This document shows positions 12,576 through 35,991 of a stretch of 64,000 bases of DNA, piece after piece. A program made the translations under genes and the position numbers. The first letter of the stretch is position 1, and each line of letters begins with the position of its first letter. Source of the DNA: Escherichia phage UE-S1; sequence record ON568341.1. One strand, written 5' to 3'. The notes below the pieces were generated by a model. That model had not been told where the DNA came from. It worked only from the letters and a program-made list of their open reading frames with translations, and made no database searches.

Positions 12576-15239
12576 TTATTGACATGCCTCCAAACGTCGA
12601 GCCATTAACTCAGCACGGCGTGTCGTTTGGCGATACCAAGCCGAATTACGGATTTGTGCTGCTGCTTGTTTATAATTTCCTTTCGCTAATTCAGATAACA
12701 TTGTTTTAAATTTAAGAACTCCACCTTTGCCCATTTGAAATACCATTTGACATAGAACTTGCTGTGCCATATAAGGAGTTTTCATGTTATATGATGCATA
12801 AATTGATTTAGCATCATAAATTGCTTTACTACTATCACGAACAAGCATATCATTTGCTTGTTGTTCAGTTATACCAGAAGAAAAGTTTTCGCCATTCACG
12901 ATTAAATGACCGTAACCAATAGTTGGGTAGCCACGACTATCCAAATAACGCCAGAATTTACCATTTCGATAATACCCTTTTGCTTGTTGATATTGCATAG
13001 TACCCTCATATTCCTTTAATTCGGAAATAAATTGAGAATCACCTGGGACAATTTTCCAATCTATTGCAGTTTTATCTACATTACCGACATTATATGTTGG
13101 TTGTACAACTGGTGTAGATGATACACCACTTCTCTGTGTTCTTCTTTTACGAGGTACATGTCGTGAGCCACGCTGTGAATAACCAGTACCAATTGTTTTA
13201 ATTTTGGTAGTAACGACCAATTCATCACTATCAACGGATGGTTGTACTACTGCTTGCGGTGAAGATTGATTTGTTGCTTGACCTGCAATCAATGTTTTAT
13301 TAGCTGCATCTGCACCAATACCAGTTTGTGATGCATAAAATAATCCTGGGTCAACTGAACCACTAAAGCCGAGGACGTTAGCTGACGTTACACGTATTTC
13401 AAATTGCATAACACCATTTGCTTTACCAATGACCTGTCCCTTTTGAACTACATCCTTGTTTAGTAAATTCGTTTGAATATTATAAAATATAGATTTATAA
13501 CCAGATTTATGTTGAATCAAAATCCCACCATTAGTAATTACAACAACACCACCATCTGGTGCAACAACATCTCCTTTACATTGTATTTCCCATCCAGAAC
13601 GGTCAGTCTTTCCTCCATTTTGTGTTGGAATGCCTTTTCCCCAATAGCCGTATTGACGAATGGTCCCACTACACGGCATATACATATGCAAACCTTCATA
13701 TGTAATGCTATACCCAGTCATTCCAGTATCAGATACCATTAAATCTTGTGTTTGAACTTGTTCGGTTTCGGGTGTATAGTTCACAAACTGAATAGCTTCA
13801 GTTTCTTGAGCTTCAGGAATTTCTGGTGTAACATCATTTGCAGGCTGTGGCTGAACAGGGGATTCACTTGAAATCTTCCCCCCACCTTGTCTTGGTGGTT
13901 CAACATAACTACCATGGTTTTTCGCATCAACCCATGAAACAATGTCATGAATGTGTTCATTAAGACCAGCAGATGGTGTTCTGAAATTTGGTGCAGTAAA
14001 TTCAGCAGTACCGCTATTACCACCACTATTAACTGTTAATGTTTGACCTCCACCACTAACAATTGCTGAAGATGAACCAATTAAGTTTGCAGATGTAGAA
14101 GCAGAAATAGACGCATTTGAACCAGCAGTAATATCAGTACTGCTACCACTTTGCATACGTAAGGACGCAGCAGTGACCAGTCGAAGATCAGCACCGGAAT
14201 TAACCACAACTTGTCCACCAACTTTTGCATCAAGAGTTCCAATTAGATCTAATTTAGTATTGGCTCCTACGCGTGCATTAAAATCTTGACCCGTTTCAAT
14301 ATTATATGAACGACCAGCAGTGATGTTAATATCTTGCCCTGCACGAATATTGATATTCTTATCACAGTGCATGTCAATATCCCCTTCACCAGTAAATTTT
14401 ATACGGGCGGTCCCATCACGATTAATTAAAAGTACATCCCCCGTTGCTTCTGATAATAAAAGTTGTGCACCACTACGGGTTTTTATTACAACTCCTTCAT
14501 TTTTACGAGAACCAACACGGGTGTCGTTTACTGGGTTATTGAATTGTGTATCTTGATATCCATCTGGGTCTTGATCCCATGTGGGTGCAGTTAATTCCTC
14601 TTCGGTATAGCCATCATCAATGATGAAACTATTTCCACGTGGGGATGACATCCCATATACAGTACTCGTTGTTTGGCGAGTACTACTTCGGTTAGCAAGG
14701 CCAGCTTCTTCATCATACAAAAGGTTTTGCTTTTTAAGACCAGCAATAATTGGAACATTTGCATATTTGTCTTGCATATCAGTAGTGAGTGTGTTACGAT
14801 CATAGTCAGTAACAGGAAGAGGCATATCTGTTCCGCTATAATTACTAACATCTGTTGCCATACCAGGGACCATAGTATTCATGCGATGGTCATATACACA
14901 ACCAATCCAATACGCTTGAAATGTACGAGCCTGTGCGAAAATCACAACAACAGTGCACCCAACATCAGGCGGCACAGCCCAGAATCCATAACCTTTAGGA
15001 TACTGTCCATAAGCATCTGCACTTGGAATACCTGGTGTTTTACCAGCAAAAGGAGACATATAAGATGCCTCAATCCATGATTCTTTTGAATTTTTATCGC
15101 TTTGTGAACCTTGTATCCAAACTTTTAACTTTCCAGATTTAGTTGGATCTCTATTATCCATAACTGTTGCTAATTGTGGATAAGCTGGGTCAAAACGACC
15201 CAACTGTTGTTGTGCATACTTTTTACTTGTATCTGCCAT
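12576..15239 (-). CDS. gp5: Baseplate central spike / hub protein (gp5/gpV-like) with beta-helix, M23-like barrel and C-terminal lysozyme domain
   Basis: 887 aa. N-terminal OB-fold pattern resembles T4 gp5. Central Gly/Ser/Thr-rich repeats suggest a beta-helix needle. An M23/LytM-like segment follows. The C-terminal ~160 aa is a lysozyme domain with EYEG ... DSRG ... PTIGYGH. Confidence 0.7.
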   Translation of the reverse strand: MADTSKKYAQQQLGRFDPAYPQLATVMDNRDPTKSGKLKVWIQGSQSDKNSKESWIEASYMSPFAGKTPGIPSADAYGQYPKGYGFWAVPPDVGCTVVVIFAQARTFQAYWIGCVYDHRMNTMVPGMATDVSNYSGTDMPLPVTDYDRNTLTTDMQDKYANVPIIAGLKKQNLLYDEEAGLANRSSTRQTTSTVYGMSSPRGNSFIIDDGYTEEELTAPTWDQDPDGYQDTQFNNPVNDTRVGSRKNEGVVIKTRSGAQLLLSEATGDVLLINRDGTARIKFTGEGDIDMHCDKNINIRAGQDINITAGRSYNIETGQDFNARVGANTKLDLIGTLDAKVGGQVVVNSGADLRLVTAASLRMQSGSSTDITAGSNASISASTSANLIGSSSAIVSGGGQTLTVNSGGNSGTAEFTAPNFRTPSAGLNEHIHDIVSWVDAKNHGSYVEPPRQGGGKISSESPVQPQPANDVTPEIPEAQETEAIQFVNYTPETEQVQTQDLMVSDTGMTGYSITYEGLHMYMPCSGTIRQYGYWGKGIPTQNGGKTDRSGWEIQCKGDVVAPDGGVVVITNGGILIQHKSGYKSIFYNIQTNLLNKDVVQKGQVIGKANGVMQFEIRVTSANVLGFSGSVDPGLFYASQTGIGADAANKTLIAGQATNQSSPQAVVQPSVDSDELVVTTKIKTIGTGYSQRGSRHVPRKRRTQRSGVSSTPVVQPTYNVGNVDKTAIDWKIVPGDSQFISELKEYEGTMQYQQAKGYYRNGKFWRYLDSRGYPTIGYGHLIVNGENFSSGITEQQANDMLVRDSSKAIYDAKSIYASYNMKTPYMAQQVLCQMVFQMGKGGVLKFKTMLSELAKGNYKQAAAQIRNSAWYRQTTRRAELMARRLEACQ

Positions 15240-32296: not shown

Positions 32297-32352
32297 TATA
32301 AATAATATCATACTGAAAAACGAATATAACATCTTTAAGGAGATATATAATG
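32297..32352 (+). repeat. Conserved late-gene leader element, copy B, including TATAAATA
   Basis: ctataaataatatcatactgaaaaacgaatataacatctttaaggagatatataATG. TATAAATA at 32297-32304. Confidence 0.6.
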
Positions 32353-33525
32353 TCACAACTACTAAATGAATCCAAATGGGTAGCAGTAAAAGAGAAACTA
32401 GTTGAAGGTCTACAGGGTACTCGTAAGTCTGTAATGGAAACTGTTCTTGATAACCATCGTAAAGTTATGCTAACTGAATCCGCAACTTCTGGTGCAACTA
32501 CCGCTGGTAATATCGCTACACTAAACAAAGTGATTCTACCAATTATGCGTCGTGTAATGCCAACTGTTATTGCTAACGAAATTATCGGTGTTCAGCCTAT
32601 GACTGGCCCAGTCGGTCAAATTCACACCCTACGTGTACAATATGCTGATAATGCACCTGGTGTTATCGCTGGTGAAGAAATGCTTTCTCCATACAAAATC
32701 GCTAAATCCTACTCTGGTGAACTAAATTCTGATAACAGCAATCCTCAAGCTGCTCCTACTAGCCAACTAGAAGGTACTATGGGTCGTCGCGTTAACATCC
32801 GTATTCTACGTGAAACAGTTGAAGCGAAATCTCGTCGTCTATCTGCACGTTGGACTGTTGAATCTGCACAAGATGCTCAATCCCAACATGGTGTTGACGT
32901 TGAAGCAGAACTAATGGCTGCAATCGCTCAAGAAGTTACCGTAGAAATCGACCAAGAGCTACTAAGCCGTCTACGTGCACTACCTGGTGCTGCTGCTGTA
33001 ACTTATGACCAATCTAAAGTTACTGGTGTTGCAACCTTCGTTGGTGATGAGCACGCTGCTCTAGCAACTCTAATTAACCGTCAAGCAAACGAAGTTGCTC
33101 GTCGTACTAAGCGTGGTGCTGCAAACTGGGCTGTTGTTTCCCCAACTGCACTAACCATTCTACAATCTGCTACTACTTCTAGCTTTGCACGTACCACTGA
33201 AGGTACTTTCGAAGCACCAACTAACGTTAAGTTTGTAGGTACTCTAAATAGCACTATGCGTATTTTTGTTGATACTTATGCAAGTGATTCAGAAGATATT
33301 CTAATTGGTTATAAAGGTAATGCAGAAACTGATGCTGGTGTGTTCTATTGCCCATACATCCCACTAATGGCATCCGGTACTGTAATGGACCCTAACACTG
33401 GTGAATTGGTCACAACCTTCCTCACTCGTTATGGTTACGTACAACTCACTGACTCAACCAGTAGCTTGGGTAATGCTGCGGATTACTACAGCAAAATCGC
33501 TATCAAAAACGTTACTTTCATGTAA
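32350..33525 (+). CDS. gp23: Major capsid protein gp23
   Basis: IIGVQPMTGPVGQIHTLRVQY parallels T4 ICGVQPMNSPTGQVFALRAVY. VEAKSRRLSARWTVESAQD parallels IEAKSRQLKAAYSIELAQD. Only 391 aa against 521 in T4. Confidence 0.9.
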   Translation: MSQLLNESKWVAVKEKLVEGLQGTRKSVMETVLDNHRKVMLTESATSGATTAGNIATLNKVILPIMRRVMPTVIANEIIGVQPMTGPVGQIHTLRVQYADNAPGVIAGEEMLSPYKIAKSYSGELNSDNSNPQAAPTSQLEGTMGRRVNIRILRETVEAKSRRLSARWTVESAQDAQSQHGVDVEAELMAAIAQEVTVEIDQELLSRLRALPGAAAVTYDQSKVTGVATFVGDEHAALATLINRQANEVARRTKRGAANWAVVSPTALTILQSATTSSFARTTEGTFEAPTNVKFVGTLNSTMRIFVDTYASDSEDILIGYKGNAETDAGVFYCPYIPLMASGTVMDPNTGELVTTFLTRYGYVQLTDSTSSLGNAADYYSKIAIKNVTFM

Positions 33526-33571
33526 TATTGATTTTTGTAGAATTTATAGAATAAAAAACTTTTATACTAGG

Positions 33572-33594
33572 GACTCTTCGGAGTCCCTTTTTTG
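33572..33594 (+). terminator. Rho-independent terminator after the major capsid gene
   Basis: GGGACTC-ttcg-GAGTCCC followed by TTTTTT. Confidence 0.7.
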
Positions 33595-33616
33595 GTTTTT
33601 ATATAACTAAAAGATC

Positions 33617-33645
33617 TTGACAGTACTTAACAATTGTAGTATCAT
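33617..33645 (+). promoter_or_regulatory. Sigma70-like promoter (TTGACA-N17-TATCAT)
   Basis: Canonical -35 TTGACA at 33617-33622 and -10 TATCAT at 33640-33645. Confidence 0.45.
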
Positions 33646-33679
33646 ACGTGTAAATAAAGAAAAGAACTCGGAGAAAATC

Positions 33680-35275
33680 GTGTTAGAAGAAATCAAGAAG
33701 TTTTTATCAGAGAAAAATGTTCGTGGTGTTAAATCTGCTCTGCAAGCAAAATCTGTATACATTGAATTCCTGCGAGAGATGTTTGGTGATATCGATCTTA
33801 ATGAAATGATTTATATGGTATTGAATGATATTACTTCAGTGCCGAATGCTGAATGTGGTGACAAAGCTAAGTTTATAAGTATTACCGAAGGATATTCTTA
33901 CAAGTGCAATAAACCATTTCAAGGAAAAGGAAAATGCCTTATCTGTTGCTCCGCAGTTGCTAGGAAACGTAAAGAAACTTACAAAGAAAAAACTGGTTAT
34001 GATAACCCGGCACAGAATCCAGAAATTCAAAAGAAAATAGGGTATACCAATGAACAACGTTATGGCACTCGTATTGCTCAACAATCTGAACAAGTAAAGC
34101 AGAAATCAATAGAAACTAATATTAAAAAGTATGGTGTTGTTCATCCATCACAGTTGGAAAGTAATAAACAGCAACGTTTACAAACGGTACAAGAAAAGTA
34201 TGGTATCAATAATGTATGGCAACTTAATAAAGGTCTTAGTGCACGTTATGAACAGTTTAAAACACGATTTGAACAGGATGGTAAATTTACTCTTTTAAGT
34301 GATGAATCCCATTATGATAATAGCAATGACGCAACTCATGCAATCATGCACTGGAAATGTAATGAATGTGGTAATGAGTTTGATAAAGTTGCTCTTTGCT
34401 TACGCTGCCCTAAGTGTGAACCATATTCATCCAGTACTGAAGAAGTAAATCTTTATAATTACATTACCTCTATCTATAGTGGTGTGGTTATTCAAAACAG
34501 CCGCAACATCATCAAAGGTAATGAGATTGATATCTTCATCCCAGAATTGAAACTTGGTATTGAGTTCAATGGTGAGTATTGGCATCGTGATGAAGTTCGT
34601 GGTAAAAACTATCATCAATCCAAATACTTCAAAATGAAGGAAGCAGGATACAAACTTATCACTATCTATAGTAATGAATGGTCAAATAAAACTGAAATTG
34701 TTAAGAATCGTTTGAAAAGTTTGATTAGTGTGGATAGTAAAATCTATGCTCGTAAGTGTGAAGTTAGATTGGTTGCCCATGAAGAATGTGATAAATTTTT
34801 GTATGAACATCATATTCAAGGACCATGCCAATCATCAATCAAACTTGGACTTTACTATAATGATGATTTGGTTGCTTTGATGACATTTGGTGCACCACGA
34901 TTTAACAAGCAGTATGAATATGAATTACTGCGTTATTGTTCTAAAGGAACAGTTGTTGGGGGTGCATCGAAACTGTTAAAACATTTTGAACGTATGTATC
35001 TTCCTAAATCTCTTCTTTCATACGCCGATATGAACTGGAGTACTGGTAATTTGTATGAAAAAATTGGTTTTACTTTAGAAGAAGTAACTCAACCTGGTTA
35101 TTTTTACTATGATAGAAAAAACGAAGTTGTTTATTCTCGCCATCAATGCCAAAAACAAAAACTTATTAAAAAATATAATTTTGATAGTTCTATGACAGAG
35201 AAGGAAATGACAAAAGAATTAGGATACTTTAGAATCTATGATTGTGGTAACTTAGTTTATAAAAAGATTTACTAA
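33680..35275 (+). CDS. Free-standing homing-endonuclease-like protein: zinc ribbons, tandem KYG repeats, PD-(D/E)xK (Vsr/DUF559-like) core and GNAT-like C-terminal domain
   Basis: Cys pairs CLICC and CLRCPKCE. Four tandem repeats of about 20 aa. Nuclease core EIDIFIPELKLGIEFNGEYWH. C-terminal VVGGASKLL ... LYEKIGF resembles acetyltransferase motifs. Start set to GTG 33680 after GGAG. Sits after gp23, the position of segD in T4. Confidence 0.5.
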   Translation: MLEEIKKFLSEKNVRGVKSALQAKSVYIEFLREMFGDIDLNEMIYMVLNDITSVPNAECGDKAKFISITEGYSYKCNKPFQGKGKCLICCSAVARKRKETYKEKTGYDNPAQNPEIQKKIGYTNEQRYGTRIAQQSEQVKQKSIETNIKKYGVVHPSQLESNKQQRLQTVQEKYGINNVWQLNKGLSARYEQFKTRFEQDGKFTLLSDESHYDNSNDATHAIMHWKCNECGNEFDKVALCLRCPKCEPYSSSTEEVNLYNYITSIYSGVVIQNSRNIIKGNEIDIFIPELKLGIEFNGEYWHRDEVRGKNYHQSKYFKMKEAGYKLITIYSNEWSNKTEIVKNRLKSLISVDSKIYARKCEVRLVAHEECDKFLYEHHIQGPCQSSIKLGLYYNDDLVALMTFGAPRFNKQYEYELLRYCSKGTVVGGASKLLKHFERMYLPKSLLSYADMNWSTGNLYEKIGFTLEEVTQPGYFYYDRKNEVVYSRHQCQKQKLIKKYNFDSSMTEKEMTKELGYFRIYDCGNLVYKKIY

Positions 35276-35292
35276 AATACGGGAGAATACGG

Positions 35293-35643
35293 ATGTTAAC
35301 TGTATACAAATTTAACAAAGAAGAGTACTTAAAGAGTCAGTACTCAAATATAGAAATAAATGTTCCTTATGGTACGTTAGTTGGATATGATGAAGCCACT
35401 GAAACATTGTATTATAATGATGATAGATTGGATTATAGTTTAGATTCTTTCATAGAAGATATACTTAATACACAAACTGAAGATATGTTGTATGAAGAAT
35501 ACATCGATCATTATAGAGAACGTATGTCGGTGCTGCATTCTGATGCTCCTGTACTAAACATAGCACAAGAACCATCGGAATTTCAGCCACATAATCCTTT
35601 TCAACGTTTAATTGATATTGGTTTAAAATTCACTATTAGTTGA
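35293..35643 (+). CDS. Hypothetical protein (116 aa)
   Basis: ORF with an RBS inside the accessory island. Confidence 0.5.
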   Translation: MLTVYKFNKEEYLKSQYSNIEINVPYGTLVGYDEATETLYYNDDRLDYSLDSFIEDILNTQTEDMLYEEYIDHYRERMSVLHSDAPVLNIAQEPSEFQPHNPFQRLIDIGLKFTIS

Positions 35644-35682
35644 TAGATAAATATCTCCATATTAATGATGGAGATTGAATCT

Positions 35683-35991
35683 ATGTCACAGATATGTTAT
35701 GTTATAATAAACTCTGCATGGCCTGACTATGTTAAGATTGGTTTCACTTCTAAATCTGAAATGACAGAGCGTTTGAGAACGTATCAGACAGCTACCCCGT
35801 TTCGTGATTTTGAAGTTTATCATGAAGTTCACTTTGAAGACGCACGTTTAGCTGAAAAAGAGATACATAAAAGGCTTAAACAAATGAATGCAACTAGACA
35901 ACCAAACACGGAGTGGTTTAAAATGTCTAAAAAAATAGCAGCAAACATCATTGATTCTGTGTGGGATGATATGGATAACGACTTGCTATAG
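35683..35991 (+). CDS. T5orf172 / GIY-YIG-superfamily-like domain protein
   Basis: CYVIINSAWPDYVKIGFTS ... RLRTYQTATP pattern typical of T5orf172-type domains. Start at ATG 35683 after a GGAG RBS. Confidence 0.45.
   Translation: MSQICYVIINSAWPDYVKIGFTSKSEMTERLRTYQTATPFRDFEVYHEVHFEDARLAEKEIHKRLKQMNATRQPNTEWFKMSKKIAANIIDSVWDDMDNDLL

Follow-up and report, generated by a model that had tools for sequence, protein, structure and literature searches.

A probable free-standing Hef-family homing endonuclease gene in a polymorphic slot behind the major capsid gene of Escherichia phage UE-S1

Hef of T-even phage U5 replaces mobE between nrdA and nrdB and has endonuclease activity on nrdB (Sandegren et al. 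2005, cited in PMC2988022); it is described in the literature as cutting DNA site-specifically in the vicinity of its own gene. Hef-type enzymes were placed in the Vsr-like EDxHD family by Taylor et al. (2011). Fusions of Mom-family GNAT domains to nucleases of the restriction endonuclease fold were reported in jumbo phages by Iyer et al. (2021), who proposed a restriction-modification-like role for them (PMC7824862, section 3.4.7). Here, we describe a gene of this type in a 64,000-nucleotide stretch of Escherichia phage UE-S1 (ON568341.1), referred to below as the window. The gene (33680..35275; all window features given here lie on the + strand) is an uninterrupted open reading frame (ORF) of 531 amino acids plus stop, with a GTG start and a TAA stop. 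Comparison with related phages indicates that it is very probably a free-standing Hef-family homing endonuclease gene occupying a polymorphic slot bounded by the capsid-gene terminator on one side and the following gene on the other. The window itself derives from an Asteriusvirus-like jumbo coliphage of the 121Q/PBECO4 group; its flanks are 94-97% identical to many Asteriusvirus-like genomes.

Junction alignments delimit an inserted cassette at 33597..35292 (boundaries approximate to about 10 nt), which comprises a promoter-like element, a ribosome-binding site and the Hef gene, and which takes the place of a spacer of about 45 nt found in the empty PBECO4 allele. The last sequence shared with insert-free relatives is the intrinsic terminator of the capsid gene (33569..33598), a hairpin at 33569-33588 with an 8-bp stem (5 GC pairs) and a T-run, kept in PBECO4, 121Q and ph0011. 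Similarity to relatives ends just past the T-run, at about 33597; it is regained at 35293, precisely where the following gene begins with its ATG. Most relatives lack the Hef gene at this site. The slot is empty in PBECO4, where the terminator is followed by about 45 nt and the next gene, in SD-6_S16 and in fEgEco12 and, judged by span length, also in CMSTMSU and in relatives infecting Erwinia, Serratia and Yersinia. In 121Q, UB, G17, IA-38, Turkey5 and SE_PL it is filled by unrelated endonuclease genes of phrog_681, encoding zinc-finger/T5orf172 proteins of 307-406 amino acids; CapR/DUF4379 zinc fingers and weak T5orf172 matches are seen in those of 121Q (L002 2873-3970), G17 (L004 1560-2483), Turkey5 (L013 1341-2561) and SE_PL (L005 1587-2708). 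The slot of Salmonella phage SE_PL also carries, beside its endonuclease gene, an extra gene of 207 amino acids with no Pfam or PHROG match (L005 2743-3366), giving an insert of about 1.9 kb; phage 7t3 has the same span.

Among close relatives, only ph0011 has a Hef-like gene in the slot. The two Hef proteins are 65.6% identical, and the two capsid proteins 100% identical. The next-closest homologues (P0004, P0005 and P0007; 48-52% identity) are encoded directly after a gp23-like capsid gene on three metagenomic contigs, two of which specify capsid proteins just 77-81% identical to that of the window; the capsid orthologues of the metagenomic loci have Pfam Gp23 matches. As these homologues follow the capsid gene in divergent phages, the lineage shows site fidelity. 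At least two endonuclease families compete for one site, and the empty, Hef-occupied and T5orf172-occupied alleles of that site in near-identical genomes provide a clean natural experiment. The homing endonuclease reading put forward in the first-pass annotation is thus supported on two counts: the gene is far from universal at its position, and its product contains a nuclease fold.

The capsid gene upstream (32350..33525), which encodes a gp23-like protein of 391 amino acids called the major head protein in PBECO4, 121Q and ph0011, is the likely host gene of the target site. Compared with its nearest relatives, it is 98-100% identical over most of its length and 66-82% identical in the last 125 nt. 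Near its 3’ end lies a synonymous hypervariable patch (33400..33490, codons about 351-378), a putative target or co-conversion zone about 110-200 nt upstream of the insertion point. The patch covers 91 nt (7.7% of the gene) and contains 24 of the 48 differences to IA-38 or G17 (binomial P 1e-14). All patch differences are synonymous, including switches between TCN and AGY serine codons. Nucleotide diversity among ten genomes is 0.12-0.18 in the patch and 0.01-0.06 elsewhere; a smaller diversity peak is seen at nt 901-960 of the capsid gene (window about 33250-33310). The patch alleles follow which endonuclease fills the downstream slot: 121Q shares its allele with UB, G17 with IA-38 and fEgEco12, and PBECO4 with SD-6_S16, while that of the window is unique, its 3’ half resembling Turkey5. 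The divergent tract (33400-33600) lies on the left of the insert only; on the right, the window is 100% identical to PBECO4 from the first base. Such a one-sided tract fits cleavage within the 3’-terminal part of the capsid gene and co-conversion up to the insert, and the sharply bounded patch predicts where the cut site would be located.

The start and upstream signals of the Hef gene can be read within the cassette. The GTG aligns with the ATG of the ph0011 orthologue and is preceded, 6 nt upstream, by a GGAG ribosome-binding site read from the sequence (33670..33673). Further upstream, a sigma-70-like promoter is proposed (TTGACA-17-TATCAT, 33617..33645). A longer reading initiated at TTG 33617 is not credible because it would start inside the -35 hexamer. 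The GTG start also agrees with the database protein P0001, which is identical over all 531 amino acids; the identical protein is present on two independent contigs. Base composition gives no foreign-DNA signal for the insert (GC content of 32.8% for the insert, 34.1% for the window and 42.8% for the capsid gene), and a tblastn search within the window found no Hef paralogue, the best other match (13088-13225, E 0.029) being probably due to chance.

The family assignment rests on matches along the whole protein. The phrog_3339 profile, annotated “homing endonuclease”, covers residues 3-530 of 531 (E 1.7e-132), the only PADLOC match is “HEase”, and 2746 database proteins are found at E <= 1e-5; an NCBIfam scan of the window protein gave nothing useful. 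BLASTP aligns residues 37-528 with gp180 of Tequatrovirus SG1, encoded between nrdA and nrdB in the mobE slot, with 30% identity (E 4e-47), and the alignment spans both the nuclease and the Mom-like domain. The first-pass annotation had called the combination of a nuclease and an acetyltransferase-like domain unusual; this is not borne out, as it is the standard Hef architecture, present in the T-even Hef of the mobE slot and already published (PMC7824862).

An AlphaFold2 model built on 120 homologues, with a mean predicted local distance difference test score (pLDDT) of 94.8, provides the domain anatomy. Residues 1-50 (33680..33829) form an N-terminal four-helix domain of unknown function (helices 2-10, 14-22, 25-35 and 40-48) that has no family match. 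A degenerate zinc ribbon follows at residues 55-92 (33842..33955; C59, C76, C86 and C89/90), modelled as a β-hairpin. The family consensus reads CxxCG...C..C. Its first cysteine is replaced by N56 in the window protein, whereas almost no variation is seen in the family at C59, C76 and C86. Residues 96-185 (33965..34234) contain four tandem helical KYG repeats matching Pfam DUF7487 (residues 96-184, E 1.7e-12); each repeat is one predicted helix, and the array is presumed to bind DNA. Next comes a canonical CxxC-12-CxxC zinc ribbon at residues 222-248 (34343..34423), with C227, C230, C243 and C246 and with a modelled β-hairpin (222-227/233-237); C227 and C243 are nearly invariant in the family. 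The C-terminal half consists of two α/β domains, a Vsr-like, EDxHD-related nuclease domain (residues 250-350, 34427..34729) and a Mom-like GNAT domain (residues 353-531, 34736..35272), in both of which the window protein keeps all nearly invariant family residues. Most of this layout had been anticipated. The nuclease core proposed earlier as Vsr/DUF559-like and the C-terminal GNAT-like segment are both found, the latter now more precisely Mom-like. The predicted zinc ribbons hold for the second ribbon and in part for the first, which lacks the first cysteine of the family CxxC. The four predicted repeats are present as well, with a spacing of 22-23 rather than about 20 residues and with TGY105, RYG127, KYG150 and KYG173 as anchors.

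The N-terminal part varies widely within the family. Among homologues, the number of [KRQE][YF]G motifs there ranges from 0 to 13; P0108 carries a module resembling the I-HmuI NUMOD, and P0075 carries CapR/DUF4379 zinc fingers at its N-terminus. Such differences suggest a fixed nuclease plus Mom-like core around which DNA-binding domains have been shuffled.

The nuclease domain has the Vsr-like fold of the I-Bth0305I family and retains the conserved catalytic residues. Pfam gives a sub-threshold REase_MTES_1575 match for residues 278-347. D284, N297 and H302 align with D196, N208 and H213 of I-Bth0305I and are conserved in the family. The last acidic residue of the I-Bth0305I motif, D222, aligns with the invariant H312, so that the strict motif is broken, and an invariant lysine, K315, comes after it. 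E255 is a tentative candidate for the equivalent of I-Bth0305I E170. No NUMOD match was obtained for the window protein, in which the N-terminal region holds KYG repeats (DUF7487) and zinc ribbons instead.

For residues 353-531, the best structural match is phage Mu Mom (PDB 8bv8). The Pfam Mom profile (PF25680) does not match the C-terminal domain of the window protein itself; of 28 homologous domains that share 42-69% identity with it, 22 are matched at E <= 0.01 (best 7.4e-10), and P0018 and P0075 pass the Pfam cut-off. The Mom link is therefore transitive. A Pfam match of the isolated domain to RE_BanI was sub-threshold and is spurious, and a C-terminal profile run against PDB sequences returned only a weak generic GNAT match (2bsw, E 0.067). 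To place single residues, HMMER was used beside an hhalign alignment of the C-terminal family with the single Mu Mom sequence, which had a probability of 1% and served for residue register only.

The residues of functional importance in Mom are H58, R111, S124, D149, R151 and Y159 (PMC13219725). In the window protein, R418 and Y459 correspond to R111 and Y159 and are invariant, H378 corresponds to H58 in the HMMER alignment and is also invariant, and D450, equivalent to D149, is shared by 100 of the 120 homologues. The alignments place S124 at V426, or else possibly at S430. The essential R151 aligns with N452, a position at which 65 of the 120 homologues have arginine. At residues 450-453, the family divides, at the position aligned with R151, into an “ADRRW” majority and an “ADMNW” subgroup; the latter contains the window protein together with its closest relatives. 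Conservation is high in the GNAT phosphate-binding loop (G427-G428-A429-S430-K431). In the model, two helices (492-499 and 507-514) are inserted between the strands at 483-485 and 516-520, and R487, Q491 and K492 are conserved in this region; Mu Mom has, at what seems to be the matching place before its last strands, a helix-turn-helix-like insertion that is needed for activity.

What the Mom-like domain, kept across the whole family, does in a homing endonuclease has two most likely answers: site-directed adenine modification protecting the carrier genome, or non-catalytic DNA binding or dimerisation. In the literature, we found no functional test of nuclease-fused Mom-like domains, and the hidden Markov model profile of the 2026 Mom mechanism paper was made from sequences with Mom domains alone (PMC13219725). 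That the domain is catalytically active, carrying out a Mom-type adenine modification at or near its own recognition site with an aminoacyl-tRNA or acyl-CoA as donor, is a tentative proposal to which we give some weight while thinking the opposite likelier. An active, self-marking domain would explain why strong selection always keeps nuclease and GNAT domain as a pair when the DNA-binding modules around them are exchanged. If it were true, Hef would be a single-polypeptide homing endonuclease with built-in self-immunity, cutting naive genomes and chemically marking its carrier.

Together, these observations suggest a mechanism of homing. At an early stage of a mixed infection, a cassette-free genome would be bound by the repeats and zinc ribbons at a sequence within or close to the 3’ end of its capsid gene and cut there by the Vsr-like domain. 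Recombinational repair from the cassette-bearing genome would then supply the recipient with the cassette and with the DNA lying between the cut and the insert, a step that fits the one-sided tract at 33400-33600 and the 100% identity to the right of the insert. The carrier’s own allele would be spared from cutting by its synonymous changes.

Several points weigh against this. Firstly, homing by the window protein is a prediction from sequence. Secondly, the patch is not assignable to Hef rather than to the T5orf172-type endonucleases of the same slot. Thirdly, the position after the capsid gene in divergent phages could reflect old vertical inheritance and repeated loss. Fourthly, both catalytic domains are under strong purifying selection across the 120 homologues, more than a purely selfish, decaying element needs, which hints at a benefit for the phage. 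Finally, the 11/12 match of the promoter to consensus is not above chance, with 7 such matches in the AT-rich window and 5.1 in shuffled sequences. The earlier claim that the gene is driven by its own TTGACA/TATCAT promoter after the capsid terminator accordingly stands as to the presence and placement of both elements and not as to the distinctiveness of the match. A real promoter is supported better by position than by match score: promoter-like element and ribosome-binding site both lie within the insert, after the terminator, and a terminator hairpin followed by a promoter-like element, read by eye, precedes 4/4 other Hef genes at the site (ph0011, L014, L015 and L016).

The strongest competing explanation is that the protein is a single-polypeptide restriction-modification-like weapon whose Mom-like domain marks the phage’s own adenines and whose nuclease degrades unmodified DNA of the host or of a superinfecting phage, its main role then being exclusion or host shut-off and not spread by homing. 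This is the published prediction for jumbo-phage Mom-nuclease fusions (PMC7824862). It would account for selection acting family-wide on nuclease and Mom-like domains alike, and it is in keeping with the conserved counterparts of Mom H58, R111, D149 and Y159 and with the conserved phosphate-binding loop. We nevertheless consider it unlikely. The absence of the gene from most close relatives, with unrelated endonucleases at the exact site, is what a mobile selfish gene would show and not what a system protecting the whole genome would. The 3-10 divergent matching places found per genome in other jumbo phages are hard to square with one global modification. Homologues differ in their N-terminal DNA-binding modules in the manner of homing enzymes with sequence specificity, N452 stands in place of the essential R151 of Mom, and site-specific cutting close to its own gene is ascribed to U5 Hef (PMC2988022). 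The homing and restriction-modification-like readings are, however, not mutually exclusive.

A further alternative is that the gene is a mere passenger, a homing endonuclease gene in decay or already inactive that has lost the ability to cut and to move. Free-standing homing endonuclease genes often degenerate after fixation. The N-terminal zinc ribbon of the window protein is one cysteine short, and its C-terminal domain scores too low to be detected with the Pfam Mom profile, as might be expected of such a remnant. Yet the ORF is full-length and free of frameshifts, the model is of high confidence, every nearly invariant residue of the nuclease and GNAT domains is retained, and the identical protein occurs on two independent contigs, all of which makes decay improbable. 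A core phage function at this position, for example as a capsid-associated or DNA-processing enzyme, could be argued from the gene lying next to the capsid gene in five loci and is rejected as next to impossible, since empty alleles exist in isolated phages (PBECO4, SD-6_S16, fEgEco12 and, by span length, the Erwinia, Serratia and Yersinia relatives).

The gene order around the probable homing endonuclease gene is protease, scaffold, gp23-like capsid, Hef gene, a 116-amino-acid ORF, a stand-alone T5orf172 protein of 108 amino acids, and tail fibre. The 43 nt at 33526-33568, which separate the stop codon of the capsid gene from the stem of its terminator, are as long as in relatives and only roughly half identical to each of them, ph0011 included (alignment read by eye). 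The right-flank gene (35293..35643; 116 amino acids, phrog_15724, function unknown) is 100% identical to PBECO4 from 35293 on. No terminator is seen between the Hef gene and this gene; a promoter-like ATGACA-17-TAGAAT (10/12) lies at 35207-35235 (+), still within the 3’-terminal part of the Hef gene and 58 nt ahead of the following ATG. The 108-amino-acid protein (35665-35991, +) consists of a T5orf172/MUG113 nuclease-type domain only (Pfam E 3.7e-13), without a DNA-binding module, and is kept at the same position in every relative examined, insert-free ones included.

The annotation of the gene can now be fixed with confidence. Beyond this locus, proteins of the Hef family join a nuclease and a Mom-like domain in which key residues are conserved, and the chemistry of Mom, a Gly-tRNA-dependent adenine modification, was resolved only in 2026; with its high-confidence model, the window protein is a possible test case for fused Mom-like domains. 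Mu Mom itself is a stand-alone GNAT-fold DNA adenine modifying enzyme, whereas the domain described here is fused to a nuclease and is 13-18% identical to it.

How, then, does the locus compare with homing systems already described? I-Bth0305I (PDB 3r3p) is an intron-encoded enzyme of 266 amino acids with NUMOD and helix-turn-helix DNA-binding modules and without a GNAT domain, whereas the window gene is free-standing and its product has one. T4 segD, to which the first-pass annotation had likened the gene, also lies immediately downstream of the major capsid gene (gene 23); the likeness ends there, since segD is on the opposite strand and encodes a GIY-YIG enzyme of 223 amino acids and unrelated fold, and family scans of the window protein gave no GIY-YIG or T5orf172 match. 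The T5orf172/CapR-type homing endonucleases (phrog_681; Barth et al. 2023, PMC10448857) use the same slot, belong to a different nuclease superfamily and have no sequence similarity to the window protein. The closest counterparts are the Hef-like free-standing endonucleases known in T4-related, Campylobacter, Dickeya (F-Lim) and jumbo phages, with homology over the full length, from the KYG repeats through the Vsr-like nuclease to the Mom-like domain. Like the window gene, T-even Hef is free-standing and intergenic, lies beside an essential gene and belongs to a type present in several copies per genome. The window gene differs in its location, behind the capsid gene and not in the nrdA-nrdB interval, in its identity of about 30% and in a second zinc ribbon before the nuclease, none being seen in the T-even protein in the alignment. 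By all these comparisons, it appears to be an intact free-standing member of the Hef family, ordinary of its kind, with a domain combination that is the family norm.

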